Positions 862 through 30,979 of a DNA stretch of 37,819 nt are shown one piece after another. The translations under genes were made by a program, and so were the position numbers. Origin of the DNA: an uncultured Candidatus Bathyarchaeia archaeon. GTDB lineage: Archaea; Thermoproteota; Bathyarchaeia; Bathyarchaeales; Bathyarchaeaceae. The stretch covers positions 1 through 37,819 of the forward strand of contig CAYFTS010000056.1 of NCBI GenBank assembly GCA_964346135.1, in the 5' to 3' direction. How positions within the stretch are numbered: the first letter of the stretch is position 1; every line of letters begins with the position of its first letter. The notes beneath the pieces are model-generated. The model saw only the letters and a program-made list of their open reading frames with translations. It was not told where the DNA came from and ran no database searches.

Positions 862-1008
862 CACACTGACCACCCAATCAAATTTGAAGTATTAAATACG
901 TTCTCACCAAATCATTTAAAGTTATCTGCTTTTCTCATTGATTCCACTTTGACGCTTTCCCACAGCAATTTGCGTGAGGATACATGCATGTACACAACTC
1001 TTGAAGAG

Positions 1009-2709: not shown

Positions 2710-2793
2710 GTTGGGACACCGCGAGTATGAATCGTGTATTTGAGAGAGAACATAAAAAGGGGGAAGGAAATTGGTTTGTTTCTAGTTTTGCTT

Positions 2794-4833
2794 CTAGCTT
2801 CCAGTAACCCACCAAGTGTAGGTTCTGACCTTTTCCGCTTGGATCCATGGAGTTGTATGATATCCGTCTTCGTCAGTCCAGGTGTATCTGTACTCGCCAG
2901 TTAATGTAGTGATCCATTTGCCCGTATCATAGCTCTTCAGTGTCCAATAGGCGACTGGAAGTTCAAGGTTTTCTTCGGGTTGAATGACGAAGCTCTCTGG
3001 GAACACTGGGTTGAACTTTGAGAATTCCACCTTTACTCTTAAGGAGTCTACTCTCATGGGTCCACCAGTGAGACCTGGATCATAGTTGTATATCAGAACG
3101 GATAGGCTGTTGAGTCCTTCTTCCGTTAGAGTCGCTGGGATTCTCTCAGATACTGTTTCGTCGAGCCAACGCACGCTTCCCCAATCCCATGTTTCGGTTC
3201 CATATAATGAGCCGAGCCAGACAAACATGGCTGGGTCGATGCTATAGACGTCTATGTCCATACCCTCGTCGGCTCCGTTGGGATACTGGGTATAGCCTTC
3301 AAGAATTACATTGCCAATGAGTCGGTCGCCTAGCACGAGGTCCTCAAAGCCGTAAACCGAAGTCATGGCACCGTCGATAGAGCTTTCAGCGTAGTTGCCA
3401 TCAGGTGGGCCAAACAAGCTTGTTCCAGGATTGATCCAATCCCATTCTAGCCATGGATCATACTCGTTGACGTACAGGTATTCAAAGTCTATTGGACCGA
3501 AACCCGAGTATATCTGTCCGCTGTAGATCTGAAGTCTTTGACCGTCTTCTACACGGTACATGTCCCAATGAGTCCTTACTTCCAGTGGCACACTGGCTAG
3601 GTTCTTGATTTTTGTTCCGAAGTATTGTATATCGCCAACTGTCTTGGCACGCTTGCCTGTGCTTCCCATGATTAGCTCTGCGGTTGGTCCGTAGTATGCA
3701 CTATCGGCAGTTTGGTGAAGTAGGGCTGCCCCATTACTGTCGAGTAGATCTACATCAACCAGATTGATCGGCGAATTGCCCGCGCTCACAATTTTGAACT
3801 TGATTGTTGCCAATGTTCCATTTCCATTTGCTCCGACATTTGGCTTGAGGAAAGTTGGGAGTCGCGTGTATCCTATGTTAACCGTTCCTGTCAGGACGTC
3901 GATTGTCTTGACGAAATGGGTGTTGTAGCCGTCTTGATCCAAGAAGTCACCTTTGATGATTTCAGCGGCTATAATGGTCTTTGCGAAAGGTGCATAGTCC
4001 ACTTTGAAACCTACAGTCCACAGATCTGTGGCGTTGGCTACGTTTATATCGACGTAGAATTCGTCACTCCAATATGAGTAGTCTGCCGTAATCTCTGCAG
4101 AATCACTGGGTACATACAGGAAAGTTACCACGCCGGTCTTGTCGACGATTGTGTAGTCAACATATCTGGTTTGAGGAACACCGTCAACGTAGATGGTTTC
4201 GCTTTCGTAATCTAATGGGGGACTAGAGAGACTGAACTCCGCGATGTATGATGTATAATCTGCCGTGACTGTTGCAGTATCGGCTGGCAGATATAGGAAG
4301 GTTATCTCACCAGTCCAGAAGTCAATTGCATAATCCGTATCTCTCGTTTGAGGAACGCCGTCAACGTAGATGGTTTCGCTTTCAGGAATCACCGGAGTTT
4401 CAGCGAGGCTGAACTCTAGGTTACCGTATTTGTAGTCTGCGGTGATTACCGCGTCCTTGCGAGGAGCATTGTCAAACGTTATTGTGCCAGTCCAGTAATC
4501 AATGGTGTACTTGCCGGCATGCGCCACGTGACCAGCGATGTAGACAGTTTCAGTTGACTCACCCACTGGAGTGTTGGCGAGATAAAACACCGTGGTGTCA
4601 CCGTCCCCAACTCCAAGGGTTTCGTTCACAACTGTAGTCCACATTTCAACTCCGACAGCGTCACCCACAACTGGGTAATGAAACCTCGTGTCTAAGGTCT
4701 CAACCATGCTGGGGTCCACGTAGACTACTGCTTCTGTCCCTTGAGCGCTAACAACCGGTAGCGTAGCAGCAACCATCACTGCAATCCAAGAAAGCCATAA
4801 CAAGTTTTTGATTTTTCCTTTCATTCTATTCAC
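2794..4833 (-). CDS. Secreted cohesin-domain protein with three tandem ~59-aa repeats and a ~300-aa C-terminal region of unknown function
   Basis: Signal peptide MNRMKGKIKNLLWLSWIAVMVAATLPVVSAQG. Cohesin-like module FYVDINVANATDLWTVGFKVDYAP...GTLATIKFKIVSAGNSPINLVDVDLLDSNG (about nt 3709-4062), resembling the cohesin in the 1-861 ORF. It begins 9 nt downstream of the dockerin-bearing SBP gene, so co-transcription is likely. Confidence 0.7.
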   Translation of the reverse strand: MNRMKGKIKNLLWLSWIAVMVAATLPVVSAQGTEAVVYVDPSMVETLDTRFHYPVVGDAVGVEMWTTVVNETLGVGDGDTTVFYLANTPVGESTETVYIAGHVAHAGKYTIDYWTGTITFDNAPRKDAVITADYKYGNLEFSLAETPVIPESETIYVDGVPQTRDTDYAIDFWTGEITFLYLPADTATVTADYTSYIAEFSLSSPPLDYESETIYVDGVPQTRYVDYTIVDKTGVVTFLYVPSDSAEITADYSYWSDEFYVDINVANATDLWTVGFKVDYAPFAKTIIAAEIIKGDFLDQDGYNTHFVKTIDVLTGTVNIGYTRLPTFLKPNVGANGNGTLATIKFKIVSAGNSPINLVDVDLLDSNGAALLHQTADSAYYGPTAELIMGSTGKRAKTVGDIQYFGTKIKNLASVPLEVRTHWDMYRVEDGQRLQIYSGQIYSGFGPIDFEYLYVNEYDPWLEWDWINPGTSLFGPPDGNYAESSIDGAMTSVYGFEDLVLGDRLIGNVILEGYTQYPNGADEGMDIDVYSIDPAMFVWLGSLYGTETWDWGSVRWLDETVSERIPATLTEEGLNSLSVLIYNYDPGLTGGPMRVDSLRVKVEFSKFNPVFPESFVIQPEENLELPVAYWTLKSYDTGKWITTLTGEYRYTWTDEDGYHTTPWIQAEKVRTYTWWVTGS
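4075..4560 (-). repeat. Three in-frame tandem repeats (period 177 nt / 59 aa) inside the 2794-4833 CDS
   Basis: Protein repeats: ESTETVYIAGHVAHAGKYTIDYWTGTITFDNAPRKDAVITADY, ESETIYVDGVPQTRDTDYAIDFWTGEITFLYLPADTATVTADY and ESETIYVDGVPQTRYVDYTIVDKTGVVTFLYVPSDSAEITADY. At DNA level, gtttgaggaac[a/g]ccgtcaacgtagatggtttcgctttc occurs at 4169-4206 and 4346-4383, exactly 177 nt apart. Confidence 0.8.
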
Positions 4834-8085: not shown

Positions 8086-9535
8086 GGAGGCAAAAGTTGT
8101 GTCACCTCTAATCTCCGAAGAAAGAAGGATAATGTGGGCAAAAAGGATTAAGGGTTTCTGGCAAGAATTTAGAAGGAAAAAGATTGGTGTAGTAGGCCTT
8201 TTCCTCTTGGCCTTGTTTGTAATAATGGCTGTTTTTGCGCCTTGGCTAACACCGTACCAACCTTTGGGTTCTGAGCGCGTAGCCACAGGGTTTGCGATGC
8301 CTCAATGGGTTAAAATCTTTCCTGGACTTCAAGACCTTCCGTCTACGCATAGCATGTCGCTTTATTGGGAGAAAGAGGAAGCGTCTGAATTCATAAAAGC
8401 ATGGGGACACAATGTTGTAGTACAATTCGAACCGGGAACGACAGAAACCGTGTATGTTGAGCTCGGCGCCAAAATCTCCTATCCGGAAGATTCCCCGCCA
8501 GACACGTTCTATATCACCTTCACTTGGGGTGCGGAACAAATCAAAGACATGGAGTACTTACTCAAACTGATCGTGGTTAATCCAAAGGGTGAATCTTACC
8601 TCCTATGGCTTCCACAAGGTTGGCAAACGAAAAGTAAGGGTGCGAGTGTTTATATTGACTCACATAATCCTCTCCTGATGGATAGATTAGGCCTCAAACG
8701 CGGCGAAGATAATCTAGCGAACATTGTCTTCTCAGAAAAAGGTGAATACAATTTCACTCTGCAGGTGGCGTTCAAGCCGCAGACAGAAAACGCAGAGGCC
8801 AAGATTACTTTCCAAGATACCACTCTCGTCACATTGGGAGGAGTACATGGCATTCTGGGTACCGATAACGAAGGAGTAGACATCTGGGCGCAGCTGGTGT
8901 ATGGAGCTAGAATCTCTTTAACGATAGGATTGCTGGCGGCTATTCTCGAAACGATCATAGGCATCACCGTGGGAGTTTTTGCAGGATACTTAGGCGGTCC
9001 TGTCGACGAAATTTTAATGCGAATAGTAGACATACTTCTTTCTTTACCCCTTCTGCCCTTACTGTTGGCTCTTGTAGCTTTGTTCGGAGCGAACGTGATG
9101 TACATAGTTCTCTTCGTGGCAATATTTGGCTGGCAAAGCTTATCAAGGATCGTCAGATCTCATGTTCTCTCTCTACGGGAGACCTCTTTTATCGAGTGTG
9201 CTCGAGCAGCTGGTGGCAGTAGGTTTTACATAATACTAAAACACATGATACCCAACGTTCTTCCCATTGCCTTTGCATCCATGGTGCTTAGTGTACCATC
9301 TGCGATCTTGTTTGAGGCCACGTTGAGTTTCTTGGGGTTTGGCGACCCCAGCGCACCTACTTGGGGAAGAATGCTTTCCTACGCCTTTGGAGCAGGTGGA
9401 TTCACCCATTTGCCAATAGCTTGGTGGTGGGTATTACCTCCCGGACTAGCAATAACTTTCCTCTGTTTGGCCTTCGTGTTTATGGGGCACGCAGTTGACG
9501 AGATTGTAAACCCAAGGTTGAGGAGGCGGCGGTGA
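8072..9535 (+). CDS. ABC transporter permease, OppC/DppC type, with a large extracytoplasmic insert after TM1
   Basis: Canonical OppC motifs: GILGTDNEGVDIWAQLVYGARISL, an EAA-like FIECARAAGGSRFYIILKHMIPN, and the C-terminal DEIVNPRLRRR. It overlaps the upstream permease by 14 nt. An alternative start is ATG 8132 (MWAKRIKGFW), which has an SD-like GAAGGA. Confidence 0.9.
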   Translation: MKEGREAKVVSPLISEERRIMWAKRIKGFWQEFRRKKIGVVGLFLLALFVIMAVFAPWLTPYQPLGSERVATGFAMPQWVKIFPGLQDLPSTHSMSLYWEKEEASEFIKAWGHNVVVQFEPGTTETVYVELGAKISYPEDSPPDTFYITFTWGAEQIKDMEYLLKLIVVNPKGESYLLWLPQGWQTKSKGASVYIDSHNPLLMDRLGLKRGEDNLANIVFSEKGEYNFTLQVAFKPQTENAEAKITFQDTTLVTLGGVHGILGTDNEGVDIWAQLVYGARISLTIGLLAAILETIIGITVGVFAGYLGGPVDEILMRIVDILLSLPLLPLLLALVALFGANVMYIVLFVAIFGWQSLSRIVRSHVLSLRETSFIECARAAGGSRFYIILKHMIPNVLPIAFASMVLSVPSAILFEATLSFLGFGDPSAPTWGRMLSYAFGAGGFTHLPIAWWWVLPPGLAITFLCLAFVFMGHAVDEIVNPRLRRRR

Positions 9536-10507
9536 ATGGAAAGGTTGTTAACTGTCGAGAACCTAAAGATGTACTATGAGACCATGAGAGGATACGTCAA
9601 GGCAGTGGACGATGTAAGCTTCACTGTGAATAAGGAGGAGGCTTTAGGACTCGCTGGCGAGTCCGGATGTGGAAAAACGAGTGCCGCATTAGCAATTTTG
9701 AGACTATTGCCTTGGAATGGTAAGATAATTGAAGGAAACGTCACATTAGCTGGTGAAAACCTCATAAAAATGAGCGACAAAGAACTTCGACAGAAGATTA
9801 GGTGGAAAAGGATTTCTATGGTATTTCAAGGAGCAATGAACGCCCTTCATCCAACTTACACAATTGGGCGTCAAATAGCGGAGCCGATACTTAAACATGA
9901 AGACGTTAGCAAGCGTGAAGCAATGGAACGAGCTGGGAAGCTTCTTGAACTTGTGGGGATTGAACCCGAAAAAACTGTTCGGTACCCATATGAACTCAGT
10001 GGCGGTATGAAACAGCGTGCCATTATAGCGATGGCTCTAGCCTGTAACCCCGACCTGATTATCGCAGATGAGCCGACTACTGCGTTAGATGTCATTGTGC
10101 AGGCTCAAGTGTTGAAGGTCATGGAAGACTTAAAGCGTAAGCTGAAACTTTCCTGGATACTAATATCACATGATCTCTCGATAATCGCTGAAACGTGTAC
10201 AAAGGTTGCGATTATGTACGCTGGAAAAATTGTGGAATACGGAGACGTAGTGCACATATTCAAAGAACGCTTGCATCCGTACACAGAAAAGTTAGTAACT
10301 GCTTTTCCAAGCGTGTTGGGACCCAAGAGAGAGCTTTCTTCTATACACGGCTTCCCGCCGGACCTTCTTGAACCCCCAGCTGGATGCAGGTTTAATCCGA
10401 GATGCCCACATGTTATGGAAATTTGCAGAACTGAAGAACCTTTACTTACCGATGTTGGCAAGAAACATCATGTGGCATGCCATCTGCACCACGGTGAAAA
10501 ATCTTGA
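9536..10507 (+). CDS. ABC transporter ATP-binding protein, OppD/DppD type
   Basis: Walker A GESGCGKT, ABC signature LSGGMKQR, Walker B LIIADEPTTALD, and H-loop ISHD. The C-terminal oligopeptide-transporter domain has a Cys/His cluster (GCRFNPRCPHVMEICR...HHVACHLH). Confidence 0.95.
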   Translation: MERLLTVENLKMYYETMRGYVKAVDDVSFTVNKEEALGLAGESGCGKTSAALAILRLLPWNGKIIEGNVTLAGENLIKMSDKELRQKIRWKRISMVFQGAMNALHPTYTIGRQIAEPILKHEDVSKREAMERAGKLLELVGIEPEKTVRYPYELSGGMKQRAIIAMALACNPDLIIADEPTTALDVIVQAQVLKVMEDLKRKLKLSWILISHDLSIIAETCTKVAIMYAGKIVEYGDVVHIFKERLHPYTEKLVTAFPSVLGPKRELSSIHGFPPDLLEPPAGCRFNPRCPHVMEICRTEEPLLTDVGKKHHVACHLHHGEKS

Positions 10508-11520
10508 AAGAAGATGTAACTATAGAAGTTCGAAACTTGGTGAAGTATTTCCCAGTGAAATTAGGGTTCTTCAAGACGCTAAGATCGAAAGAAATGTTGT
10601 ATGTTCACGCTGTTGATGACGTGAGCTTCAAAATCAAAACTGGCGAAATATTTGGGCTTGTAGGCGAAAGCGGATGCGGAAAAACTACAACTGGAAGATG
10701 TTTGCTTCGACTGATCGAACCTACCCAAGGTGAAGTGATCTTCAAAGGCGTAGACATAATATCCCTCTCCCTAGAACATGACGTAAGAAGACTACGACGG
10801 AAAATGCAAGTAATATTTCAGGACCCATATGAATCTCTAAATCCGAGAATGAACGTTCTGGACATAATAGCGGAACCATTGCGAATTCAAAAAGTCACTA
10901 AAAGTGAGAGGGAGGTCAATGAGAAAGTAGCCGAAGCCTTGGAGGATTTGGATTTAGTTCCGCCTGATGAGTTTCTGTATAGGGTTCCCCACGAACTTAG
11001 CGGTGGCCAGAGACAGAGAATTGCCATAGCCCGAGCCTTTGTGCTCAAACCTGAGTTTCTAGTTGCAGATGAACCTGTATCGATGCTTGACGCGTCCATC
11101 AGAAGCGAAGTTCTAAAACTTCTCTTGGATCTGCAACAAAGATTTCACACTTCGATTCTCTATATAACACATGACATAGCTTTAGCTCGGCATTTGTGCG
11201 ACCGCGTCGCGGTCATGTATTTGGGTAAGATTGTAGAGAAAGGGGTTACGGAGGAACTAATTCAAAAACCGATGCACCCATACACTAAGGCATTAATAGC
11301 CGCTGTGCCAGTTCCCGACCCAACAGCAAGGCGGATTAGTGTTGTGATCGGGGGAGAAGTTCCAAGCGCCATTAGCCCACCCCAAGGATGCCGATTCAAT
11401 ACGCGGTGTCCTCACGTCATGGGGATTTGCCGAAAGAAAGAACCGCAACTTACTGAACTCGACCAGCGCAGACATGTAGCATGCCACTTGCATACTAGCT
11501 CAAAGGTTTCAAAAACATGA
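10504..11520 (+). CDS. ABC transporter ATP-binding protein, OppF/DppF type
   Basis: Walker A GESGCGKTT, signature LSGGQRQR, Walker B FLVADEPVSMLD, and H-loop ITHD. The C-terminal domain has GCRFNTRCPHVMGICR...RHVACHLH. A 4-nt overlap with the upstream ATPase gene indicates translational coupling. Confidence 0.95.
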   Translation: MKEDVTIEVRNLVKYFPVKLGFFKTLRSKEMLYVHAVDDVSFKIKTGEIFGLVGESGCGKTTTGRCLLRLIEPTQGEVIFKGVDIISLSLEHDVRRLRRKMQVIFQDPYESLNPRMNVLDIIAEPLRIQKVTKSEREVNEKVAEALEDLDLVPPDEFLYRVPHELSGGQRQRIAIARAFVLKPEFLVADEPVSMLDASIRSEVLKLLLDLQQRFHTSILYITHDIALARHLCDRVAVMYLGKIVEKGVTEELIQKPMHPYTKALIAAVPVPDPTARRISVVIGGEVPSAISPPQGCRFNTRCPHVMGICRKKEPQLTELDQRRHVACHLHTSSKVSKT

Positions 11521-11565
11521 GAAGAATGTATCTTCTTTACTTCTTAATCTTTTGAGGGCTCACTC

Positions 11566-12057
11566 ATGGCTCTAAATGCAAGACGAATCATAATAATAGC
11601 TTTCATATTAACTACTGTAGTTTTCAATGTCATCACCGTTTACACTGCAGGAGTTTACTTCCGAGCATATGCTGGAGTGAGGAATTTTAACGTTAGCATC
11701 CAGGAGTTCAAGGCCAACATCTTCAATGCATCTTACGCATCAACAGAGACCATTTTGACCATCCGTAATCCTTCACAATGCATGTTTGAGGCATTGTACA
11801 TCGTAGAACGACTAGAACTCGAAGGTCAATTCATATCAGTTGATGGTATGTATATGTGGACGAAGCCTCTGCAGATACCTCCACAGTCGAACATCACTGT
11901 GACACTCGAGCAGAATATTCACTATGATCGCATACAATACGTGCGATCTCGACTAGAGGAATATTGGCTTATGGAGATCCGAATGTTGTTGAATGGGCCT
12001 CTCGTCGGAACCTTCATGTACAACTCGTTGTTCACGACTAAGATAACCAATATTTAA
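11566..12057 (+). CDS. Hypothetical single-pass membrane protein
   Basis: ORF with an N-terminal TM segment (RRIIIIAFILTTVVFNVITVYTAGVYF) followed by a probably beta-rich ectodomain carrying several NxS/T sequons. I recognised no family with confidence; a LEA14/WHy-like fold is only a guess. Confidence 0.45.
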   Translation: MALNARRIIIIAFILTTVVFNVITVYTAGVYFRAYAGVRNFNVSIQEFKANIFNASYASTETILTIRNPSQCMFEALYIVERLELEGQFISVDGMYMWTKPLQIPPQSNITVTLEQNIHYDRIQYVRSRLEEYWLMEIRMLLNGPLVGTFMYNSLFTTKITNI

Positions 12058-13469: not shown

Positions 13470-13940
13470 TTAAGGTCCCATTGCTAAACCTTTCTTAAGT
13501 ATGGCTTCCATAATTTTATGGTGCTTCTTCTCATCGTCAGCTATGTGTTGAAGTAACAGTTCCAAAGCATCGTCGTCGGTCTTTTCTATTGCGTCTTCGA
13601 CATGACGCAACATGTTCTTTTCAATTCGCATGTGATCTTCCAACGTCTTTTTCGCGAGTATGACATCAGTGTAACTGTGTATTTTTGTGTCCCAAAGTGT
13701 TCGTTTAAGCGCATCCAAATGTGTTTTCGAGTCTCTTTCTGTCTTTTTCTGTTTCATCAAATCCAACACTGTCTGTAGAATCTTGGCGTGTTTCTCAGTG
13801 TCAAACCGCAATTCAGCCAAAAACAGTTTCGCAGCCAAGTTCACAGTGTCCTTTTCTAATTTCTTGATCTTTCTTGCAGTGTTTTTTTCCAACTTGATTT
13901 GAGTTCGAACTAAATTAGCAAAATCTTTTTCAGACTTCAT
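13470..13940 (-). CDS. Hypothetical all-helical protein with an internally duplicated EKxH motif (possibly a ferritin-like four-helix bundle)
   Basis: A 156-aa charged helical ORF. Two similar segments are DTEKHAKILQTVLDL and DDEKKHHKIMEAILKK. The diiron-type ExxH pattern is exact in only the second copy, so the functional call is weak. Confidence 0.45.
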   Translation of the reverse strand: MKSEKDFANLVRTQIKLEKNTARKIKKLEKDTVNLAAKLFLAELRFDTEKHAKILQTVLDLMKQKKTERDSKTHLDALKRTLWDTKIHSYTDVILAKKTLEDHMRIEKNMLRHVEDAIEKTDDDALELLLQHIADDEKKHHKIMEAILKKGLAMGP

Positions 13941-17731: not shown

Positions 17732-19165
17732 ATGAAGCCTACAATCAATTTGTTAACCCGAGACGAACTTTACGAAATTCATCTAGCTACAGTGAACATT
17801 CTTGAACGAGTCGGCGTAGGCATCTACGAGGAAAGAGCGCTTAAACTGATGGATGAAGCTGGGGCAAACGTTGATTACGATAAGAAGGTTGTGAAGATAC
17901 CTCAGTATCTTTTGAAGGAGTTAATTAGTAAAGCTCCCGAAGTTGTTACACTTTTCGCTAGAAATCCCAAGCGCACGGTTAGACTTGAACCTGCAAAAAC
18001 TTACTTCAACAACTCAAGTTACGGAATAAATGTATATGACTTAGATACTGGAAAACATAGAGATTCAAAAAGCGAAGATGTGATCAATTTCGCGAGACTA
18101 GTAGACGCTTTAGAAAACATTCATGTTTATCAGCCTACGGTCACAGCGCATAACATTCCAGAATATATTAGAAGTATCCATGAACTTGCAATATCGCTGG
18201 AGAACACTTCGAAACACGTGTCACATGCAGCTTCCGGTGCTGACGCAATCAAACGTTATATTCAGATAGGCGCAGCGGTTGCGGGAGGAGAAGAGGAACT
18301 TAGGAAGAAACCATTAATCTCTGCCAGCACATGCCCCATAAGCCCTTTACAACACTCAAAAGAAGACACAGAGACCTTAATCGAATACGCCAAATTTGGC
18401 TTACCGTTTTTCATATTAAGCATGGCTATGGGCGGAGGAACAGCGCCACTCACAATTGCAGGCGAATTAGTTGTGATTAACGCCGAAGTTCTCAGTGGAA
18501 TAGCCTTAGTTCAACTTGTAAACCCGGGGACCCCTGTGCTTTACGGCAGTGTATCATCAACAATGGACATGAAAACAGGCAAAACAGCGTTAGGTGCCCC
18601 TGAAAGACCTCTAATCAATTCGGGATGCGCTCAGCTGGCTAGATACTATGGAATCCCATCTTGGATAGGAGCCTGCTCAACAGACGCCAAGGCCTCTGGA
18701 CCTCAAGCGATGTTTGAGAAGGTTATGACAGCCATCCTTCCTATGTTGGCGGGCGCCAACCTCATATATGGTCCAGCCATACTGGATTCTGGTAAGACCT
18801 ATGGTTTCGAGCAGTTGGTTCTCGACAACGAGATAATAGGAGCAGCTTACCGCATCCTAGAAGGCGTGGACGTAAACTCAGAGTCCTTAGCCCTTGAAGT
18901 CATAGAAAAAGTTGGAATAGGCGGTCACTACTTAGCTCAGAAGCATACGAGCGATCACGTGTTAAGCGATCAGTGGAGACCCACGCTGTTGGATAGGGGA
19001 ACTAGAGGAGACTGGGTTAAAGCTGGCTGTAAGGATATATGTGCGTTGGCAAGGGAGCAAGCTAAGAAGATTTTGTCATCTCATGAAGTTGAACCGTTAG
19101 AAAAGGATGTTAAAGAAAAAATTTGGGAGATACTGAAGAAGGCGGAGAAGGAGCTGAAAGACTAA
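17732..19165 (+). CDS. MttB-superfamily (trimethylamine methyltransferase-like) protein, non-pyrrolysine type
   Basis: A 477-aa uninterrupted ORF with the typical N-terminus (LTRDELYEIHLATVNILERVGV) and core (PISPLQHS..., GPAILDSGKTYGFEQLVLDNEIIG, GIGGHYLAQKHT) of the MttB family. There is no in-frame TAG, so it belongs with the quaternary-amine (MtgB-like) branch rather than true Pyl-MttB. Confidence 0.85.
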   Translation: MKPTINLLTRDELYEIHLATVNILERVGVGIYEERALKLMDEAGANVDYDKKVVKIPQYLLKELISKAPEVVTLFARNPKRTVRLEPAKTYFNNSSYGINVYDLDTGKHRDSKSEDVINFARLVDALENIHVYQPTVTAHNIPEYIRSIHELAISLENTSKHVSHAASGADAIKRYIQIGAAVAGGEEELRKKPLISASTCPISPLQHSKEDTETLIEYAKFGLPFFILSMAMGGGTAPLTIAGELVVINAEVLSGIALVQLVNPGTPVLYGSVSSTMDMKTGKTALGAPERPLINSGCAQLARYYGIPSWIGACSTDAKASGPQAMFEKVMTAILPMLAGANLIYGPAILDSGKTYGFEQLVLDNEIIGAAYRILEGVDVNSESLALEVIEKVGIGGHYLAQKHTSDHVLSDQWRPTLLDRGTRGDWVKAGCKDICALAREQAKKILSSHEVEPLEKDVKEKIWEILKKAEKELKD

Positions 19166-21190: not shown

Positions 21191-23098
21191 ATGGGAAAAA
21201 AGTTGCGTAAAAAGCTAATTGCGGAGTTAAGCCTCTTCTTTCTTATTTTAATCTATTGCACAACAGCACCTGAGCCGCTTACAATGACTGCTAAAGTTTC
21301 AGCACAACCGACAGTTCCTTATAATATCGGAAACTGGACCTACGTGAGTAAGCCAGTTCTTCCTTTAAAGATAAATGCATCTCAAATTCCGATAGGTGCT
21401 AACTGGACTTATGTTTACGCCTTAAACGCCAACCACACTTATCACGTGTACTTTTACGGAGAATGGATTAATCCCGATGATCCTAAAACAGACTATGACG
21501 TTTTCGTTTACAACCCCAGTGGAGAATTAGAGTCATATCACACTGAAGCAGCAGGCTTACCTGAACATTTAGGAACCACGGTAGATCAGCCCTTTTTCAC
21601 TCCGAAACAAACAGGCAACTATAGTTTCCTCATGAAAAATGACCCAAGAGAAAGTCAAGACGCAGAAGAAGGTACCTTCATGCTGATTGAAAACATAGAG
21701 CCCAACAGATGGTATCAACGTTATCTTATGGGAAAAGTGAACGATCAGCCAGTTGAAAATACGACTTGGGCGTACGAATTTAACACAACAAGCAAACATG
21801 TAGAGGTATGGATTGATGTGTCAGACACCCTTGACATGTATGAAGCCAGACTGTATCTTATGGCGAACCCATCAAAAGGCATGGGCGACCTGTTAAACGC
21901 TATGCCTTTAGCTTGGGAACCCGGACTATACGGCGACATTTCAGGAGATTATGGCGGGTATAACTTGAATAGCACAGGTTTCAGACACACAGATGCTATG
22001 GCAAGCTGCGAGTTTCCAGGAGAAGACATGTTAATCAATTACACTTCTTCCTATGAAGAAAACATCCTTTATCATTTGGTTTTGATAGCTGAAGACGGAG
22101 TTGGTAGTCTCAATTTTACGGTTAAAACAGATTTTGAAGCTCCGAGCTTGAGCATCGAAAACCCTATAGAAAAAGCATATTCCAATAATGCAACGACAAT
22201 AACCGCTTATGTAAACGATGAATTTAGCTTGAAGAGAGTGCTGTTGAATTATACCATAGATGACTGGGCAACATGGACTTCAACCGTTATGTCAGCATCT
22301 CAAAACCAAACGTATGTTGGAACAATACCTGGACAACCAGCTGGTGTCACGGTTAAATACAAAATTTTGGCAACTGACATCGCTGATAACCACGCTGAAA
22401 CGCAAAGTAGTTACGTGGTGAAGACTCCAACCACCATATCCATCATTTTGTCCAACTCCACTATTTATTACGGCGAAAACATCACGGTTACTGGTCTTAT
22501 CTCTCCAAGCGGAGCAACGGTGACGTTAAACTATACTGTTGATGATGTAGTGGTGTCTAAGGTGGTGTCCACAAACTCCAGTGGTTTCTTTAACGATGTT
22601 TACATGCCAAACAAAACTGGGTTCTGGACAGTTTTAGCAAGTTGGAGTGGCAACGATAGTTATTTTGGTGCATCCACTAGTTACAAAAACTTTACTGTAA
22701 ACCGAACTCCAATGTCAATAATTTGTAACATAAGCAGAGTTCAGTTAATCATCGGAGAAAATGTTACAGTATTCGGCTCGGTTAGCCCTGTCGTGGAAAA
22801 TATGAGCGTTGGGTTAATATTTACAATGCCAAACGGCTCAACTGTCGAACGGTATGTTTACACGAACTCAAACGGCACCTTTACTGCCAGTTTTCGCCCA
22901 CATTTCATAGGGGCTTGGCGTGTTCAAGCAAAATTTGATGGTGACGATTTACGAGTTGAGTCTCAAAGTGAATTGGTGTCCTTCCTTGTAACTGACACTT
23001 GGATGAACCAAAACATATTGTACATAATCTTGGGTGTGGTCGCCGCCATAATAGCTTTCGTAGCCGTGATTTTCATCCGAAAACGAAGATACGGATAG
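21191..23098 (+). CDS. Large secreted surface protein with tandem Ig-like domains, many N-glycosylation sequons and a C-terminal TM anchor
   Basis: Signal-anchor LIAELSLFFLILIYCTTAPEP. Two similar ~95-aa Ig-like modules lie at about nt 22427-22991 (IYYGENITVTGLISPSGATVTLNY...GFWTVLASWSGNDSYFG and LIIGENVTVFGSVSPVVENMSVGLIF...GAWRVQAKFDGDDLRVES). The C-terminal TM plus basic tail is ILYIILGVVAAIIAFVAVIFIRKRRYG. Confidence 0.65.
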   Translation: MGKKLRKKLIAELSLFFLILIYCTTAPEPLTMTAKVSAQPTVPYNIGNWTYVSKPVLPLKINASQIPIGANWTYVYALNANHTYHVYFYGEWINPDDPKTDYDVFVYNPSGELESYHTEAAGLPEHLGTTVDQPFFTPKQTGNYSFLMKNDPRESQDAEEGTFMLIENIEPNRWYQRYLMGKVNDQPVENTTWAYEFNTTSKHVEVWIDVSDTLDMYEARLYLMANPSKGMGDLLNAMPLAWEPGLYGDISGDYGGYNLNSTGFRHTDAMASCEFPGEDMLINYTSSYEENILYHLVLIAEDGVGSLNFTVKTDFEAPSLSIENPIEKAYSNNATTITAYVNDEFSLKRVLLNYTIDDWATWTSTVMSASQNQTYVGTIPGQPAGVTVKYKILATDIADNHAETQSSYVVKTPTTISIILSNSTIYYGENITVTGLISPSGATVTLNYTVDDVVVSKVVSTNSSGFFNDVYMPNKTGFWTVLASWSGNDSYFGASTSYKNFTVNRTPMSIICNISRVQLIIGENVTVFGSVSPVVENMSVGLIFTMPNGSTVERYVYTNSNGTFTASFRPHFIGAWRVQAKFDGDDLRVESQSELVSFLVTDTWMNQNILYIILGVVAAIIAFVAVIFIRKRRYG

Positions 23099-24624: not shown

Positions 24625-27270
24625 TCATGGATATGTTTTGCCGTAGTTTGCAGCGAAAACACCGAAGTCAAACCAGTCAACATCGCCGTCCCAGTCAAAG
24701 TCACACTGATCGTCATAGTTGGAACCGCCAACACTGCTTCCATAAGCCTGAGCGAAATCGCCGAAGTCAAACCAGTCCACGTCTCCGTCGCCGTTCAAGT
24801 CGCCAGCATGTGTCACGAAAACTGCGCTGTAGATGTGGGTATTGTCTAAAACGTCGAGTTCGCTTGGAACTAGTGTGGCGTAGGCGCTTATGATGTAGTT
24901 GCCCTTGGCAAAGTCTGTAGTGTTCCATATGAAAGTGATGGTTGTGAAGTCTCCACTTGTTAAGGTGATGTTGGTAAGTGTGTCGATGATAGTTGTGTTG
25001 GCGTAGGTAGTTATGTTGAAGTTTTCAGAATAGGCTCCCTGATTTGTTACTGTCACGTTTATGCTCAAGGTGAGTCCTTGTCCCACAAATGTTTTGGAGG
25101 GAGCAACGCCTGTAACAGACATGTCGTGGACTTCGCCTCCAACGTGTGTCATTACCACAGGTTCAGCTCCATTGTTATGGAGCCAGAGGTCCCAGATGGC
25201 ATTGCCCCAGCCTTTCAAGTTGGCGAAGAAGGGGTCAGTTTGGATAATGTAGGCTTCAAGGGGCAGGGTATTACCATCTCCGTTTATCTCATCTCTAAGA
25301 AACTCGATGTACTCTTTGGAAGTGGTTTGATAGTAGAGGGTTGCATTCCAAGAAGCAGTGCCAGCAGGTTTTGCTATCGTTACATCATCATAGCCACCTG
25401 CATATTCTTCAGGAGTAAAGTAGTCTGGTGCGTCCTCACCTTCCCACCTTGGCTGGACAAGTCTTGTGTACATCTCAGTTGTGTCAAAACCTTTTGGTGG
25501 AATCCTGTTGTCTTTGTAGCGGTCTGTGGCAAGGGCAAAATGGAAGGTCTTATTCTCCCCTGTGAGTTCGACACTTGCCATCTCAGCCTCCCACACTAGC
25601 CTTTCATGTGTCTTATTGAGGTCACCACCTGACACGTAGACCTCATTGCCGTTAGCATCCGTTGTTGTTACAAGAGGCTCATATGGGTTGATCTCTCCTA
25701 TCAGGCGGTCAGCTTCATCGAAGAACTGCACACTGAGGAACATTCTCCTGCCCTCAGGGAAACCTGAGATGAGCTTGTGCCCTCCATTGTTTGTGACCCT
25801 TATTGTAACGTTAGTAGGGTTTTCATCTACAACACTGAGGTTGGCAGCCATTTGCAGTTGCTGGATTGCTCTGTCTGCACCATCTAAGAGAGCTTGTCCA
25901 TATCCTTGAATTCCAGAAACATCTATCTGGGCGCCCTCGTACATCAGACCTGAGAGAATAGCATAGTTATATGCGTCATATACAGGTCCGGCTGAATCAG
26001 TTGACGCTAGAATTCTTAGAATCCATTGGTTGCCACCAGTCAAATCGTGTAGTGGGAGGTCAGTTCTAATTGGTGTACCAGCCTTGTTACATCCCGCTCC
26101 TGTTACATCTCTCATGTGGCAGTCTTGACACTTTTCTGCCCAAGGTATAAGTGGGATGTTAGTTGCAGTTCCACCTCTTCCATATTCGCTCAGGAGAAAT
26201 TCGCTGGCAGTTCTTTCTACGTGGAAATAAGTTGCTGCTGCCTGTGTCTCGGGAACATCTTCACCAAGAAGCACGCTAGCAAGAATTGGATTTGAGACAT
26301 CGTGGCATGTTACGCAGAACATCTTGCTCTTGTGATAACGAGAATAGTATATCTGATGCTTCGCATTGGCATCCCAGAATGGCCCCCGTTTAGCATTACC
26401 TGGGTCCACAAAGTACTGCCCTGCAGCATTTTCCACGTAATATGGAAGACTGCCATCGCCATAGTAGGTGGGAAGATTTGTGGCGGTGTTGAGAAACAGG
26501 GTTCCATTAAAGAGTGTAAGGGTTCTCAACACTTCTATATCCCTTAGGTAAGTTTCTTCTGCCATTGATTGGGCGACTGACTGTGTTTGGCTGTATATCA
26601 CCACCGAAGTTACAGTCGGGATCACAAGAAGTGTTATGCTCAACATTGTCCAGGTTCTTTTAGAGTTTATTTTTGATTTGCTGGCTACTATAATCAAGGG
26701 AATGAAAAGGAGCCAGGGATATGCGTAAATGGGAATTTCCAGTGAGTTGACTTTGGCTGAACTTGTGGTGGACGAAGCTGTCTCTGGGGGGACATCTGTT
26801 TGATTTAACTGGGTAAACGGATCTATCATCTTGTGGCAGAAATCGCACTGAACGCCATCAAAATCTGTTGTTCTAAGGGCTGCGGTATTGGTGGGATCAC
26901 TTCTGCCTTCAAGCCACCCTGTTGGAGAATGACAACGTATACAGATGTCTCCTGCATTGGGGTTACCAACAGCCCATATGGAATCCTGATCTGCCACTGT
27001 TAGACAGGCTAGCCACAATGGGTCTCTTGCAGCCTGAGCCATCATAGAGCCCCTCCAATTGTAAGCTGGCTCCACAGTGATATTGTAACCTCCATGGCAG
27101 TTGTCACATTTATCTGGTGTCTCAAAAATGCCTACTTCGCCTGGTTGTGATCCTGGCATGAACACATTACGGTCGTCTTTAACAGGTGTCGGTGTCCACG
27201 AATAGATGGAGAAAACTGTCATGAGAAAAACCAATGTTAAAACTAGTAATATTCCTAACATACGTTTCAT
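24625..27270 (-). CDS. Multihaem c-type cytochrome (5 CxxCH) with an internal hydrophobic hairpin, a CARDB-like module and a C-terminal dockerin
   Basis: Signal peptide MKRMLGILLVLTLVFLMTVFSIYS. The CxxCH motifs are CDNCH (nt 27094-27108), CIRCH, CDFCH, CVTCH and CQDCH, at aa 55, 110, 142, 319 and 381. The CARDB-like segment is HDMSVTGVAPSKTFVGQGLTLSINVTVTNQG.... The dockerin has DLNGDGDVDWFD and DFDWDGDVDWFD (nt 24628-24804). Several track ORFs on both strands inside this span are shorter and lack motifs. Confidence 0.8.
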   Translation of the reverse strand: MKRMLGILLVLTLVFLMTVFSIYSWTPTPVKDDRNVFMPGSQPGEVGIFETPDKCDNCHGGYNITVEPAYNWRGSMMAQAARDPLWLACLTVADQDSIWAVGNPNAGDICIRCHSPTGWLEGRSDPTNTAALRTTDFDGVQCDFCHKMIDPFTQLNQTDVPPETASSTTSSAKVNSLEIPIYAYPWLLFIPLIIVASKSKINSKRTWTMLSITLLVIPTVTSVVIYSQTQSVAQSMAEETYLRDIEVLRTLTLFNGTLFLNTATNLPTYYGDGSLPYYVENAAGQYFVDPGNAKRGPFWDANAKHQIYYSRYHKSKMFCVTCHDVSNPILASVLLGEDVPETQAAATYFHVERTASEFLLSEYGRGGTATNIPLIPWAEKCQDCHMRDVTGAGCNKAGTPIRTDLPLHDLTGGNQWILRILASTDSAGPVYDAYNYAILSGLMYEGAQIDVSGIQGYGQALLDGADRAIQQLQMAANLSVVDENPTNVTIRVTNNGGHKLISGFPEGRRMFLSVQFFDEADRLIGEINPYEPLVTTTDANGNEVYVSGGDLNKTHERLVWEAEMASVELTGENKTFHFALATDRYKDNRIPPKGFDTTEMYTRLVQPRWEGEDAPDYFTPEEYAGGYDDVTIAKPAGTASWNATLYYQTTSKEYIEFLRDEINGDGNTLPLEAYIIQTDPFFANLKGWGNAIWDLWLHNNGAEPVVMTHVGGEVHDMSVTGVAPSKTFVGQGLTLSINVTVTNQGAYSENFNITTYANTTIIDTLTNITLTSGDFTTITFIWNTTDFAKGNYIISAYATLVPSELDVLDNTHIYSAVFVTHAGDLNGDGDVDWFDFGDFAQAYGSSVGGSNYDDQCDFDWDGDVDWFDFGVFAANYGKTYP

Positions 27271-27431
27271 TATTGTTACCCATCCTCCTTTCTCGCATAT
27301 CGATTAGTAACATCTTATATATGATTTTTTTTGATTACTATAAGGAAAATTACGTATTCTATAACTCTTCTATGGTTGACACTCTTCAATTACCATTCAA
27401 AAGAATGTTGAAAAAATAACGAGTCTATCTA

Positions 27432-27869
27432 TCAGCGTCTTGCCTTCGGTTTCGGCTTAACTGCCATCTTCTCCTCTTCTCCACTATCCTCCTCCTCCCC
27501 AACCCGCCTTCCAGAACCATGTCTATTCATTTCACTAGAAAAAAGCAGGTTAGGCGGAGGATAAGGCGTATCAAGAACCGTCGCCAAAAGAAAAGTCGTC
27601 GTAAAAACACGTTGATAAACTCTGTGGAGAAGTAAAGGTATCTTTGTTTTCGGATCAACTTCCAACAATTTTTCTATTGCAGTATTACTGCCAGAAAGAG
27701 TTGCCGCTCCCTCGACCTCAAACTTAACCACACTAGGTTTCGTGCCCACAGTTAAAACAAAACTAACAACCAGTCTCCCACTTTTCCGCTCCTTCTCTTC
27801 CAACTTGGCATTAACATCAAAACTAAACGTAGCCGACTCTTCCTTTCCCCCAAACTTAACGCCACGCAA
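27432..27869 (-). CDS. Hypothetical 145-aa protein with an acidic/basic tail (weak SecB-like resemblance)
   Basis: The ORF has a TTG start, and the frame stays open about 70 nt further upstream without a canonical start. The segment IPLLLHRVYQRVFTTTFLLATVLDTPYPPPNLLF loosely recalls the SecB C-terminal signature (LFPYARE...FP..NL.PVNF). The tail is GEEEDSGEEEKMAVKPKPKARR. Confidence 0.4.
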   Translation of the reverse strand: MRGVKFGGKEESATFSFDVNAKLEEKERKSGRLVVSFVLTVGTKPSVVKFEVEGAATLSGSNTAIEKLLEVDPKTKIPLLLHRVYQRVFTTTFLLATVLDTPYPPPNLLFSSEMNRHGSGRRVGEEEDSGEEEKMAVKPKPKARR

Positions 27870-28193: not shown

Positions 28194-29933
28194 CTAAAGA
28201 CCAACGGCACCTCTACCAGCATCTAGAAATAGATGCGAAAATTTCTTTGCCAAATCCCTCATGTCTTTGACATTGCAATTTACTCTGAAAAAATTCTCCA
28301 TCCTATTGGTCTTAACTCCCACCCCAATGACAACCATACCAACTTTTTCGAGAAACTCAAGAGTTTCCCCCAGAGCCACTGTTACATTCGAATAGCCGTA
28401 GGGCCGTCCATCGGAGAGAATAGTCAACAGCCTAAGGTTTTCGGCTCTTCTCTTTAGAATTTCTCCCGCAAGGCGGAGAGCATCCGGCATGTAGGTGAGG
28501 CCTTCAAACCTTAGTCCCCCAATTCGTGCTTTTATTTTAGGGCCATATCTTTCTGTTGTATCCTTCAAAATGAGAAACCGATCGTTAAATGCGTAAATTC
28601 CCCAAGACGTTGGATCTATCAACAGTTCTTTTGCAGTGTCAGCAAGACATATACACAAATTTCGAACATCATCGCCAATGTAGCCCATACTTTTACTGGC
28701 GTCAAGGAGGATGACCCAAGCATGGCTTTTGCTTATATTTTCGTCTCGCATGAAAACATCCATTCTCGGACTCTTACTAGCCATGACTTGTATAACTTCT
28801 TGAATGTCTAGAACACCAAACATTTTTCTAGGGTCCTCATCCAAAGCATCAAACGCCACCATGAGACTATCTATGAGTCTCCTTGTTGAGCTTTTAGTCG
28901 TTGTCTTCGCTCTAAGGTATTGCGTGTAGTCTTCAGTTGGAAAGCCGATTGATTTGAACTTGGTTAGGGATATAAGTTCTTCATATCTGTCAAGAATCTT
29001 TTCGTGTTTGGCTTTTTCGCGAGACCAAGAATCATAGACTTGAAGAGCCTCTGCCTCAACTGCCCTTTTCCGCATAGTCTGTTGTGACTCATCTCCTGAA
29101 GCTTCTCCTCCTAGAGTTGTCAAACATTTGTCAAAGATGTCGCCGACTCCATCGTCAGGTTGCACTTGGTATTGAGGAAAAAGAGTACAGTGTTCCAATT
29201 GTTCTGTATGAGGCAGTGATGGGATTTCCAGTACAGGTTCATAATGTTCAAGGGCATGATAAATTTTATCCGCGACTTTTAACTCCATATTGTCTAAATT
29301 TGCCTGCTCACCAGCGAAGGATTCTAATGCTTTTTCTTTTAGTTGTCTAAGCTCTTTCACTACTTGACTGACCGTTTTCTGTTCTTCCGTTCTTATCTTT
29401 CCCTTAGCTACTCCTAAATTAGCTTGCAACAACGATGCAGCCATGATTCGAGTGGCTGAATTCCAGATTCTTCCAAGAGGCTTCATTCTTTTAAAAGCAA
29501 GAGAGTTGGCGAAAGCTATGTCCACAAGCTTGTCAGGATGCCGTGCTAAGATATAGGCGTTAGCCTTAACATCTTCAACTAATGACTCCGCAAACTTTGC
29601 AACACGATTATCTTTCTGCTTCTCCCACTTAGAATACATTTCAAAATTTGAAGTGACAATGTGTGCGCTAAGGTGGAAGACAGAAGCCTTTAGTAACCGG
29701 GCAACTTGCAGTTTTCCCTTAGACTCCGCTGGAAATTGATACCCCAAGAACGAAATTGCTTCCTCCCCTTCATCACCATGTAAAACGGGTTCTGGCAAAG
29801 CTATCACAAAGCCAACTTTGTCACGTGAAAGAATTGGCTGCGTAAGTTTTGGGTCAATGCGCAACTTTGTTTCGAACTGGTCTTTTTTGAATAATAAAGA
29901 CCAAGCATATTCAAGGTAGCCCAATGGAACCAC
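28194..29933 (-). CDS. von Willebrand factor A (VWA) domain protein, NorD/CbbO/CobT-like partner of the adjacent MoxR ATPase
   Basis: The C-terminal VWA has a MIDAS motif, VILLDASKSMG (DxSxS), and downstream ...GLTYMPDALRLA...LTILSDGRPYGY. The long helical N-terminal region is as in NorD/CbbO-type proteins. It lies 32 nt downstream of the AAA+ gene. Confidence 0.8.
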   Translation of the reverse strand: MVPLGYLEYAWSLLFKKDQFETKLRIDPKLTQPILSRDKVGFVIALPEPVLHGDEGEEAISFLGYQFPAESKGKLQVARLLKASVFHLSAHIVTSNFEMYSKWEKQKDNRVAKFAESLVEDVKANAYILARHPDKLVDIAFANSLAFKRMKPLGRIWNSATRIMAASLLQANLGVAKGKIRTEEQKTVSQVVKELRQLKEKALESFAGEQANLDNMELKVADKIYHALEHYEPVLEIPSLPHTEQLEHCTLFPQYQVQPDDGVGDIFDKCLTTLGGEASGDESQQTMRKRAVEAEALQVYDSWSREKAKHEKILDRYEELISLTKFKSIGFPTEDYTQYLRAKTTTKSSTRRLIDSLMVAFDALDEDPRKMFGVLDIQEVIQVMASKSPRMDVFMRDENISKSHAWVILLDASKSMGYIGDDVRNLCICLADTAKELLIDPTSWGIYAFNDRFLILKDTTERYGPKIKARIGGLRFEGLTYMPDALRLAGEILKRRAENLRLLTILSDGRPYGYSNVTVALGETLEFLEKVGMVVIGVGVKTNRMENFFRVNCNVKDMRDLAKKFSHLFLDAGRGAVGL

Positions 29934-29965
29934 CGTTTTCTATTGAAGTTGTAGCCAGTGACCAG

Positions 29966-30979
29966 CTAACCGCTCTTGAAAACGCTTTCAATAATTCTCC
30001 TCACATCACCCTGCACTTCTGGGCTATCACTGGTCAAAGCAACTATTGTTTCCTCAGCAGCTGCTAAAGGGGCAAGTCCATCGTTAATAAGAACTGCCCA
30101 GTGCATTAAATCTCCAAGTGAAGGTCCATAAGGTAAGTCCCCTGCCTTATACTGCCTCCGCATCTCTGCTCCAACCCTAAGAACTTTAAAAGCCGTGTCT
30201 TCATCCACACCTTTTCTAACTATCAGCTGCGCTTCTTCGGGAAGAATCCTGTCTCCAACACTTGGATAGTCAAAATTTACCCATACGCTCATTCGTCTTC
30301 TGAAAGCTGCGTTCATGGGTTTGGTTCCCGCAAACTCTGCTGAAAAGGGGTTCATAGCAATTATTACGTATCCAAACTTATGGCGCTTGACGATTTCGCC
30401 ATCCTTCTCCGTAATCACCATGTGGCCCCTCGTGTCAAGTACTGGATTCAGTCTAGTGGCAACATCCTGCTTCATCATGTTTGCTTCATCCAAGTACATT
30501 AAACCTCCATTTCTAAGCCAAGAAACCAATGGTCCATCGATCCAGTTTTCTTTTCCAAGTCCAATGTACCGTCCTATAAGGTCATAAGACGATGTTTGAA
30601 GACCACAGTTAACCTCATACATAGGCAATCCCGTAAGTTCAGCAACGAGATAAGCGATATGCGTCTTTCCTGTTCCAGATGGTCCAATTAATGCGCATTG
30701 TTTAAAATAGTAAAGAGCTCTTATTATCTGCTTAACGTAGTCATGATCGCCTTGAATGTATGGTGGAGTGTTAGCTGGAATTAAACCTCTAACCTTATCT
30801 GGGAATTCATAATTTCGATGGAGATTATATTTTTCAAGGTCGACGTTGTATAAGCCTTCGAGAGGCGATTTTGCCGCAGATTGTTTCCTTGTTAATCGAA
30901 TACTGATTCTAGCGCCGTTTCGTCTAATGTGGGTCACTTCGTCGTCTGTCGTGGTTGTCCCTCGGGTTTGGAGCGACAA
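29966..30979 (-). CDS. MoxR-class AAA+ ATPase (AAA_5; CbbQ/NorQ/GvpN-like)
   Basis: Walker A GPSGTGKTH, Walker B LMYLDEANMM, then VIIAMNP and an arginine-finger region AAFRRRM, typical of the CbbQ/NorQ subgroup. The TTG start at 30977-30979 is preceded by GAGG. The next ATG lies beyond Walker A, so a non-ATG start is required. Confidence 0.9.
   Translation of the reverse strand: MSLQTRGTTTTDDEVTHIRRNGARISIRLTRKQSAAKSPLEGLYNVDLEKYNLHRNYEFPDKVRGLIPANTPPYIQGDHDYVKQIIRALYYFKQCALIGPSGTGKTHIAYLVAELTGLPMYEVNCGLQTSSYDLIGRYIGLGKENWIDGPLVSWLRNGGLMYLDEANMMKQDVATRLNPVLDTRGHMVITEKDGEIVKRHKFGYVIIAMNPFSAEFAGTKPMNAAFRRRMSVWVNFDYPSVGDRILPEEAQLIVRKGVDEDTAFKVLRVGAEMRRQYKAGDLPYGPSLGDLMHWAVLINDGLAPLAAAEETIVALTSDSPEVQGDVRRIIESVFKSG

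Follow-up and report, generated by a model that had tools for sequence, protein, structure and literature searches.

How an archaeon bounded by a single membrane might hold a multihaem redox protein at its surface, and for which chemistry, is the question raised by a gene in a 37,819-nucleotide stretch of DNA (contig CAYFTS010000056.1 of assembly GCA_964346135.1, from an uncultured Candidatus Bathyarchaeia archaeon), the whole of which is called the window here. Such a cell has no periplasm to hold a protein of this kind. The gene encodes an 881-residue pentahaem c-type cytochrome ending in a dockerin, and a first-pass annotation had suggested an extracellular electron-transfer component displayed on a cohesin scaffold. 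We favour another explanation, which we would put at an even chance of being correct: that the protein is an exported five-haem enzyme with the architecture of cytochrome c552 and of the selenoprotein MccSep, retained at the archaeal surface by a mid-chain hydrophobic hairpin and a CARDB-dockerin tail. An enzyme is favoured over an electron conduit because haem density is low, conservation follows an active-site-like pattern, conduit partners are lacking and the family is found mainly in bacteria. Genes for LonB, TrmB and a phosphoglycerate mutase of archaeal type are present on the contig, and the nearest named homologue of the cytochrome, 73% identical, has TFIIB and archaeal ribosomal protein genes as its neighbours on a Bathyarchaeota chromosome. 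By these markers the contig is archaeal, which answers the concern that it might be a bacterial contig binned in error.

Judged by its haem-binding motifs, the protein is a genuine c-type pentahaem cytochrome. Exactly five CxxCH motifs were found in the 881 residues, starting at C55, C110, C142, C319 and C381, in agreement with the first-pass annotation. When the residues of the protein were shuffled 20,000 times, such motifs averaged 0.0039 per shuffle and never exceeded one. Residue conservation was scored on 70 true members of the family obtained from a genome scan, with best local identities to the query of roughly 30-76%, and both the CxxCH motifs (Table 1) and the candidate distal ligands proved to be conserved in these homologues. 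Full conservation across the 70 members also extended to M76, R82, D83, H305, R353, H408, H498, R508 and R509. H313 and H577 were kept in 68 of the 70, and conservation was lacking at H350 and H698. Outside the CxxCH motifs there was no conserved cysteine: C89 and C394, the only such cysteines in the core, were present in 40 and 41 of the members, respectively. The Ig-like (immunoglobulin-like) beta-sandwich of the core contains an invariant loop, NNGGHKLISGFPEGRR (residues 494-509, nucleotides 25744-25791), in which N494, H498, K499, G503, P505, E506, G507, R508 and R509 are each at least 97% conserved. This loop, together with the low haem density, suggests an enzyme rather than an electron conduit. 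The pentahaem nitrite reductase NrfA was considered as a candidate and ruled out, as the protein has no CxxCK catalytic motif and no NrfA match was obtained in Pfam or NCBIfam.

The N-terminus of the protein has the features of a signal peptide. Hydropathy reaches a peak of 2.0-2.7 at residues 10-18, position -1 before the conserved W25 is Ala, Ser or Gly in all 62 homologues compared, and position -3 is mostly Ala or Val. The cytochrome is thus predicted to be exported, with a signal-peptidase-like site preceding W25. The gene probably has its own expression signals, since an A-rich tract, a TATA-like sequence (catatataag) about 45 nucleotides away and the Shine-Dalgarno sequence aaggagga are found upstream of the ATG. 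Scans for sigma-70 promoters and terminators gave nothing exceeding the shuffle control, as expected, sigma-70 models being inapplicable to archaea. A public protein collection contains an entry 100% identical to the cytochrome (P0001), as well as close orthologues of 69-78% identity.

A model of the protein was built with AlphaFold2 (AF2) from a 71-sequence alignment. The model was a confident one, with a predicted local distance difference test (pLDDT) of 83.9 and a predicted template-modelling score (pTM) of 0.75; it was helical towards the N-terminus, with a beta-sandwich spanning approximately residues 476-648. Against the PDB, Foldseek gave a single significant fold match, to the Thermochromatium tepidum pentahaem cytochrome c552 (5ZE8; E 2.1e-7, probability 1.0, template-modelling (TM) score 0.66 on the target). 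A viral structure library yielded only generic beta-sandwich noise. Cytochrome c552 resembles the window protein in having five c-type haems and the same fold class, and is reportedly composed of a haem domain and an Ig-like domain. However, it has only 385 residues compared with about 690 in the core of the window protein, which contains large extra segments, and it is soluble and periplasmic, without hairpin, CARDB or dockerin. The function of c552 is not established either. Searches of the PDB by sequence, using the full protein, the family profile or the Ig-like region alone, gave no match to the core. These searches matched only the dockerin, FN3 tails in homologues and, weakly, a stretch of 6I5B with two haems (E 0.0047), so that the core has no solved homologue.

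A comparison with a protein of established activity is provided by MccSep, a multihaem selenoprotein of Geobacter sulfurreducens. MccSep is a polysulfide reductase consisting of a five-haem alpha-helical cap and a C-terminal Ig-like stem, with a loop of the Ig domain supplying the catalytic selenocysteine, and its authors use the c552 structure for comparison (bioRxiv 10.1101/2025.11.18.688581). According to the model, the window protein belongs to the same architecture class, with a five-haem helical cap packed on an Ig-like beta-sandwich. Taking MccSep as a working model, the invariant Ig loop with H498, R508 and R509 could form a catalytic pocket. The MccSep structure was itself absent from the fold matches of the AF2 model.

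The core of about 690 residues belongs to a very large, unnamed and mostly bacterial family. At least 3,998 relatives of the cytochrome were found by a word-indexed search, while an exhaustive search returned 9,432 representatives at E<=1e-3, including 1,050 at E<=1e-30, and a scan of one genome per species gave 263 family loci. The suggestion that such proteins are uncommon outside specific archaeal lineages was therefore not borne out. Archaeal hosts are Bathyarchaeota and Thermoplasmata, and there are more than 15 bacterial lineages, including Aminicenantes, Actinomycetota, Verrucomicrobiota, Thermoanaerobaculia, Ignavibacteria, Zixibacteria, Latescibacterota, Bacteroidota (Bacteroidales, Flavobacteriaceae), Gammaproteobacteria and others; Mangrovibacterium and Aestuariivivens are cultured carriers. 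No Pfam or NCBIfam model and no solved member exists for the family, NCBIfam gave no family for the 881-residue protein even at E<=1, and no description of this pentahaem family was found in the literature. A typical member has about 750 residues with an FN3 domain at the C-terminal end. The closest relatives, from Bathyarchaeota, end in a dockerin instead of FN3, and in the query and two others the dockerin is preceded by CARDB. Such a distribution would fit acquisition of the core by archaea through horizontal transfer. An apparently split gene in Bathyarchaeota bin345 (L030) was discarded as a case of gene fission, the truncation being caused by masked runs of N.

The query and its closest relatives also differ from the rest of the family within the core. 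The haems, CARDB and dockerin were all listed correctly in the first-pass annotation; a hydrophobic insert in the middle of the chain was missed. In 61 of the 71 aligned sequences an 8-residue loop is found at this position, between haem 3 and the next core helix, whereas 70-77 residues occupy the same columns only in the ten closest sequences, the query included. In the window protein the insert begins with a Ser/Thr-rich linker, followed by a hydrophobic segment H1 (179-196, IPIYAYPWLLFIPLIIVA), the basic loop SKSKINSKR (197-205), a second hydrophobic segment H2 (206-226) and a tail ending in SVAQ. The conserved architecture is a Ser/Thr-rich linker, a hydrophobic helix of about 19 residues with a proline, a charged loop, a hydrophobic helix of about 21 residues and a short tail with small residues before the conserved sequence QSM. 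In the relatives that carry the insert, the charge of the loop ranges from +3 to +6 and no more than one of its residues is acidic. Hydropathy maxima are located at residues 185-188 and 215-219, and AF2 places helices at 185-197 and 203-248. The insert is probably a transmembrane hairpin with the basic loop in the cytoplasm and both halves of the cytochrome outside. Its first half is like a C-terminal anchor and its second half like a signal peptide, so that internal cleavage is conceivable, and the small residues ahead of the conserved QSM might allow the protein to be cut into two associated chains. Two other readings of the insert were ruled out. It did not arise by duplication of the signal peptide at the N-terminus, given that no DNA repeat was found in 26560-27275. 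Nor is it an archaeosortase/exosortase signal of the PGF-CTERM kind, which H1 and SKSKINSKR resemble, given its internal position (179-205) and the absence of an NCBIfam match. A classic C-terminal membrane anchor, similar to the first half of the insert, is seen elsewhere in the window at the end of a 635-residue secreted protein (21191-23098, + strand), which has weak sub-threshold Ig-like matches and terminates with a hydrophobic helix and RKRR.

The C-terminal part of the protein agrees with what had been annotated there. The CARDB module was recognized by Pfam at 26.4 bits (cut-off 22.7), although AF2 confidence over it was low (pLDDT 36-74). The dockerin consists of two segments as described, each with a 12-residue Ca-loop, DLNGDGDVDWFD (from 824) and DFDWDGDVDWFD (from 857), spaced by 33 residues and followed by a helix; in the AF2 model these helices span 833-842 and 866-875 (pLDDT 78-93). 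A phmmer search against the PDB aligned the Cel48 dockerin 2Y3N_B with residues 818-879 (E 6.7e-6), and precomputed Dockerin_1 (PF00404) matches exist on eight close orthologues. The reported repetition of the two halves at the DNA level was also found, as a 51-nucleotide repeat of 82% identity (24652-24702 and 24751-24801, 99 nucleotides apart). The CARDB-dockerin segment is about 50% identical to tails and CARDB repeats of unrelated dockerin proteins, and is thus a generic, lineage-wide surface cassette. The same cassette is carried by beta-helix/NosD-like and DUF362 proteins, and by one protein without a recognized catalytic domain. The tail would accordingly indicate the location of the protein, not a dedicated redox scaffold. 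Other archaeal dockerin and cohesin proteins outside cellulosomes, in Archaeoglobus fulgidus and in anaerobic methanotrophic (ANME) archaea, likewise have a C-terminal dockerin on diverse extracellular proteins. Here, in contrast, the dockerin is fused directly to a c-type cytochrome, a fusion for which no description was found in the literature.

A possible partner of the dockerin is encoded in the same window. The first-pass annotation placed two cohesins in 1-4833. One of them stands: the open reading frame (ORF) 2794-4833 was confirmed by modelling to carry a cohesin fold, whereas the product of ORF 1009-2709 is a dockerin protein. Pfam gave only a sub-threshold Cohesin match for ORF 2794-4833 (E 0.0027), but three of its homologues have precomputed PF00963 matches, and its AF2 model matched more than 30 solved cohesins (probability 1.0, TM 0.6-0.7, root-mean-square deviation about 3 A), including the Archaeoglobus fulgidus cohesin 2XDH. 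A PDB search with its sequence gave weak subtilisin noise only. The protein has three N-terminal repeats matching DUF2460 (phage or gene-transfer-agent distal-tail-like, E 1.6e-18) and a large beta-rich region at the C-terminus, an unusual combination with a cohesin. The cohesin and dockerin setting of the cytochrome is thus real, with other dockerin proteins and one cohesin-fold protein in the window, while its interpretation as a dedicated redox scaffold did not hold for a tail of the generic type. In both loops of the cytochrome dockerin, W-F occupies the usual recognition positions, 10-11, in contrast to the window's other two dockerins, which are of the I-V-D-A type with small or aliphatic residues there. 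One of these two, a canonical dockerin (E 2.8e-9) with the loops DVNEDGIVDALD and DLNRDGIVEMQD, unlike the W-F type of the cytochrome, belongs to the 566-residue secreted product of ORF 1009-2709 (- strand), whose repeats show weak similarity to GH43 and PD40, with scores at or below threshold. The other is the strong dockerin (E 2.4e-7) at the end of an OppA-like SBP_bac_5 protein (4843-6915, - strand), whose gene lies beside, and divergent to, genes for an OppB/C permease and OppD/F ATPases (7051-11520, + strand). A cohesin, and not a lipid anchor, appears to hold this binding protein, and the same OppA-dockerin pattern was reported for ANME archaea (PMC9012536).

The genes surrounding the cytochrome and its orthologues were compared in order to find possible partners. 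All-against-all clustering of the ORFs from 80 genome loci recovered only the cytochrome and its own shadow ORFs as recurrent, and hence no operon partner. No cytochrome c maturation (Ccm) gene is present in the 37.8-kb window, as had been noted before. Ccm genes adjoin orthologues in five archaeal loci, with CcmF next to those of Bathyarchaeota type and CcmABCE in Thermoplasmata, and on one estuarine Bathyarchaeota contig the cytochrome, CCP_MauG, CcmBAEC and CcmF form a single compact cluster. A gene of this CCP_MauG family (dihaem cytochrome c peroxidase/MauG) is directly adjacent to the cytochrome in six loci from at least four phyla, namely one each from Verrucomicrobiia, Eiseniibacteriota and Bathyarchaeota and three from Bacteroidales (L055, L061, L064, L074, L080, L006). 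Genes for rubrerythrin adjoin the cytochrome gene in two loci of Ignavibacteriaceae and one of Bathyarchaeota (L033, at 11450-11974; L050; L085), and in another Bathyarchaeota locus (L019, 10398-11870) the adjacent gene was read as a catalase from its N-terminal sequence. This minority of neighbours points towards peroxide or oxidant chemistry, which is the best lead as to the substrate. On one Bathyarchaeota contig the orthologue and CcmF are flanked by FeoA, FeoB, a DtxR-type repressor and a ZIP transporter (L005, 11888-14791), an arrangement in one locus that hints at a connection with iron uptake.

In the mechanism that we propose, the precursor would be exported by the Sec pathway and its signal peptide cut before W25, and the haems would be attached outside the membrane by a Ccm system encoded elsewhere in the genome. 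Electrons could then hop along the chain of five haems to or from a pocket formed by the Ig loop (H498, R508, R509) and residues of the cap (M76, R82, D83, R353), where a small extracytoplasmic substrate would be reduced or oxidised. Two retention devices would have been added in this lineage, the transmembrane hairpin in the middle of the chain and the CARDB-dockerin tail, which takes the position of FN3 in the bacterial proteins and would plug the cytochrome into the general cohesin-dockerin surface display system of the lineage. A more specific form of this proposal combines the two devices: the insert, as a stop-transfer anchor plus an internal signal-peptide-like segment, would staple a bacterial periplasmic enzyme into the membrane between haems 3 and 4, and the C-terminal dockerin would bind a cohesin of the outer layer, giving a two-point hold that spans a pseudo-periplasm. 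We consider this version unlikely, though less so than any of the rival functions discussed below. If true, it would represent a previously undescribed means by which a cell lacking an outer membrane builds a membrane-to-surface redox link or keeps hold of an enzyme that it has acquired.

Several observations speak against the enzyme proposal in general. The hairpin and the dockerin seem redundant as anchors, so that one of them may serve otherwise. The likeness of the model to 5ZE8 is at the level of fold, without sequence similarity, and six conserved candidate distal ligands, M76, H305, H313, H408, H498 and H577, have to be reconciled with five haems. Dockerin_1 (PF00404) scored 15.9 bits on the cytochrome's own copy, below the cut-off of 22.9. 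Of roughly 85 loci, about 10 have peroxide-related neighbours, and no such neighbour flanks the gene in the window. It is against this background that the alternatives have to be judged. A terminal electron-transfer cytochrome on a cohesin scaffold, delivering respiratory electrons to minerals, humics or partner cells, is rather improbable in our opinion. It would agree with a multihaem protein predicted to be extracytoplasmic and surface-tethered, and with hosts that are sediment anaerobes. There is also weak local similarity to surface cytochromes, in the form of a match to PF22113 (MtrC/MtrF domains II/IV) that covers three motifs only and reaches 25 bits, the cut-off being 30, and of the stretch of 6I5B, which we take to be the surface reductase OcwA; further sub-threshold Pfam matches were to cytochromes c554 and c7. 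A role of dockerin and cohesin in 'MHC adhesion', that is, of multihaem cytochromes, has been speculated for ANME archaea (PMC5244752). Nevertheless, the core has just five haems in about 690 residues, and the neighbourhoods of the 80 loci have no conserved porin, additional cytochrome or membrane quinol oxidase. The protein shares with MtrC, OmcA and OcwA its surface location, its multihaem c-type character and the weak matches over two or three haem motifs, but differs in haem count and density, in having no staggered-cross decahaem or nonahaem core and in having no MtrAB-like partner; membership of the MtrC/MtrF/OmcA decahaem class itself was ruled out by the sub-threshold PF22113 score and by five haems in all rather than ten. 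Moreover, most members of the family are bacterial proteins with plain signal peptides and FN3 tails, including those of cultured Flavobacteriaceae and Mangrovibacterium, which are not known to be electroactive. The strongly conserved polar residues and the Ig-domain loop resemble an active site, and the dockerin cassette is generic. Nothing specific was therefore found for the extracellular electron transfer suggested by the first-pass annotation: the haems are sparse, the neighbourhoods lack a conserved conduit partner, and an enzyme is found in the closest structural class.

A role in extracytoplasmic defence against peroxide or other oxidants, whether as electron donor to a dihaem cytochrome c peroxidase, as a peroxidase itself or as the substrate of a MauG-like maturase, seems to us slightly less probable again than the conduit. 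The adjacent CCP_MauG genes in six loci, one of them in the Bathyarchaeota cluster with CcmBAEC and CcmF, the rubrerythrin genes in three and the putative catalase in one speak for it. These loci are a minority, however, with no such gene next to the cytochrome in the window, where a rubrerythrin-like ORF comes no closer than 11 kb (13470-13940). A peroxide-linked role overlaps with the enzyme explanation. By far the least probable is a polysulfide or sulfur reductase orthologous to MccSep, which we disfavour in spite of the common architecture class of five-haem cap and Ig-like stem and of hosts living in sulfidic sediments. A Cys as distal ligand of haem 2 and a selenocysteine or Cys from the Ig domain are both required in MccSep, the homologues of which are nearly all from Desulfobacterota or Nitrospirota (bioRxiv 10.1101/2025.11.18.688581). 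The window protein has neither the His/Cys-ligated haem 2 nor the selenocysteine or Cys, as neither C89 nor C394 is conserved, and so is not an MccSep; it also has no sequence-level similarity to MccSep and differs from it in size and taxonomic range. Its ORF is uninterrupted, and no read-through of an in-frame UGA is needed.

Archaeal dockerin proteins and pentahaem-plus-Ig cytochromes are kinds of protein that were already known. New are the direct fusion of a cytochrome to a dockerin, the mid-chain hairpin and the identification of a very large family that has gone uncharacterised. With its conserved, enzyme-like five-haem proteins in more than 15 phyla, abundant sediment archaea among them, the family can be approached experimentally through its cultured carriers. 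The Bathyarchaeota version may illustrate the adaptation of an exported redox protein of bacteria to a cell without periplasm, by exchange of FN3 for CARDB-dockerin and addition of a hairpin. Bathyarchaeota are usually viewed as fermenters or acetogens, and a cytochrome held at the surface and encoded beside its own Ccm genes, at times with a peroxidase gene, bears on the extracytoplasmic redox chemistry of these organisms. Extracellular respiration is not yet evidenced by these findings, the support for an electron conduit on a cohesin scaffold lying wholly in the location of the protein.

Table 1. Positions in the window of the pentahaem cytochrome gene, its parts and the candidate cohesin partner.
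Feature	Residues	Nucleotides	Strand	Basis and remarks
Pentahaem cytochrome c gene, complete including stop codon	1-881	24625..27270	-	881 aa; intact ORF in the ORF list
Likely own expression signals		27271..27330	-	Read directly from the sequence; putative function
N-terminal signal peptide (MKR, hydrophobic core, IYS before W)	1-24	27199..27270	-	Predicted cleavage
Haem motif 1, CDNCH	C55-H59	27094..27108	-	Kept in 68/70 members; gaps there in the other two
Haem motif 2, CIRCH	C110-H114	26929..26943	-	Kept in 70/70 members
Haem motif 3, CDFCH	C142-H146	26833..26847	-	Kept in 70/70 members
Lineage-specific 70-aa insert	165-234	26569..26778	-	Alignment, hydropathy, AF2; probably transmembrane hairpin
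Haem motif 4, CVTCH	C319-H323	26302..26316	-	Kept in 70/70 members
Haem motif 5, CQDCH	C381-H385	26116..26130	-	Kept in 70/70 members
Ig-like beta-sandwich domain of core	~476-650	25321..25845	-	AF2 strands 476-648, pLDDT >90; fold match 5ZE8
CARDB module	719-797	24880..25116	-	Pfam PF07705, E 8.5e-6, 26.4 bits (cut-off 22.7)
Dockerin, two Ca-loop plus helix segments (824-844, 857-877)	818-879	24634..24819	-	phmmer, AF2, DNA repeat
Candidate partner, secreted 679-aa protein with cohesin-fold module	~258-392 (module)	2794..4833	-	Pfam sub-threshold; AF2 fold match

Two further groups of genes in the window may be mentioned. Just upstream of the cytochrome and on the same strand (28194-30979, - strand) are genes for a NorQ/CbbQ-type AAA+ ATPase (29966-30979) and for a 579-residue protein with a von Willebrand factor A (VWA) domain, similar to NorD/CbbO (28194-29933). 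They are separated from the cytochrome by a 145-residue ORF without known function (27432-27869), and no link of the cytochrome to this pair or to the 145-residue ORF was seen in the other loci. On the opposite strand, a gene of the MttB family (trimethylamine methyltransferase superfamily) is located at 17732-19165 (+ strand). Since its 477-residue ORF is uninterrupted, with no in-frame amber codon, the product is probably a non-pyrrolysine member of that family.

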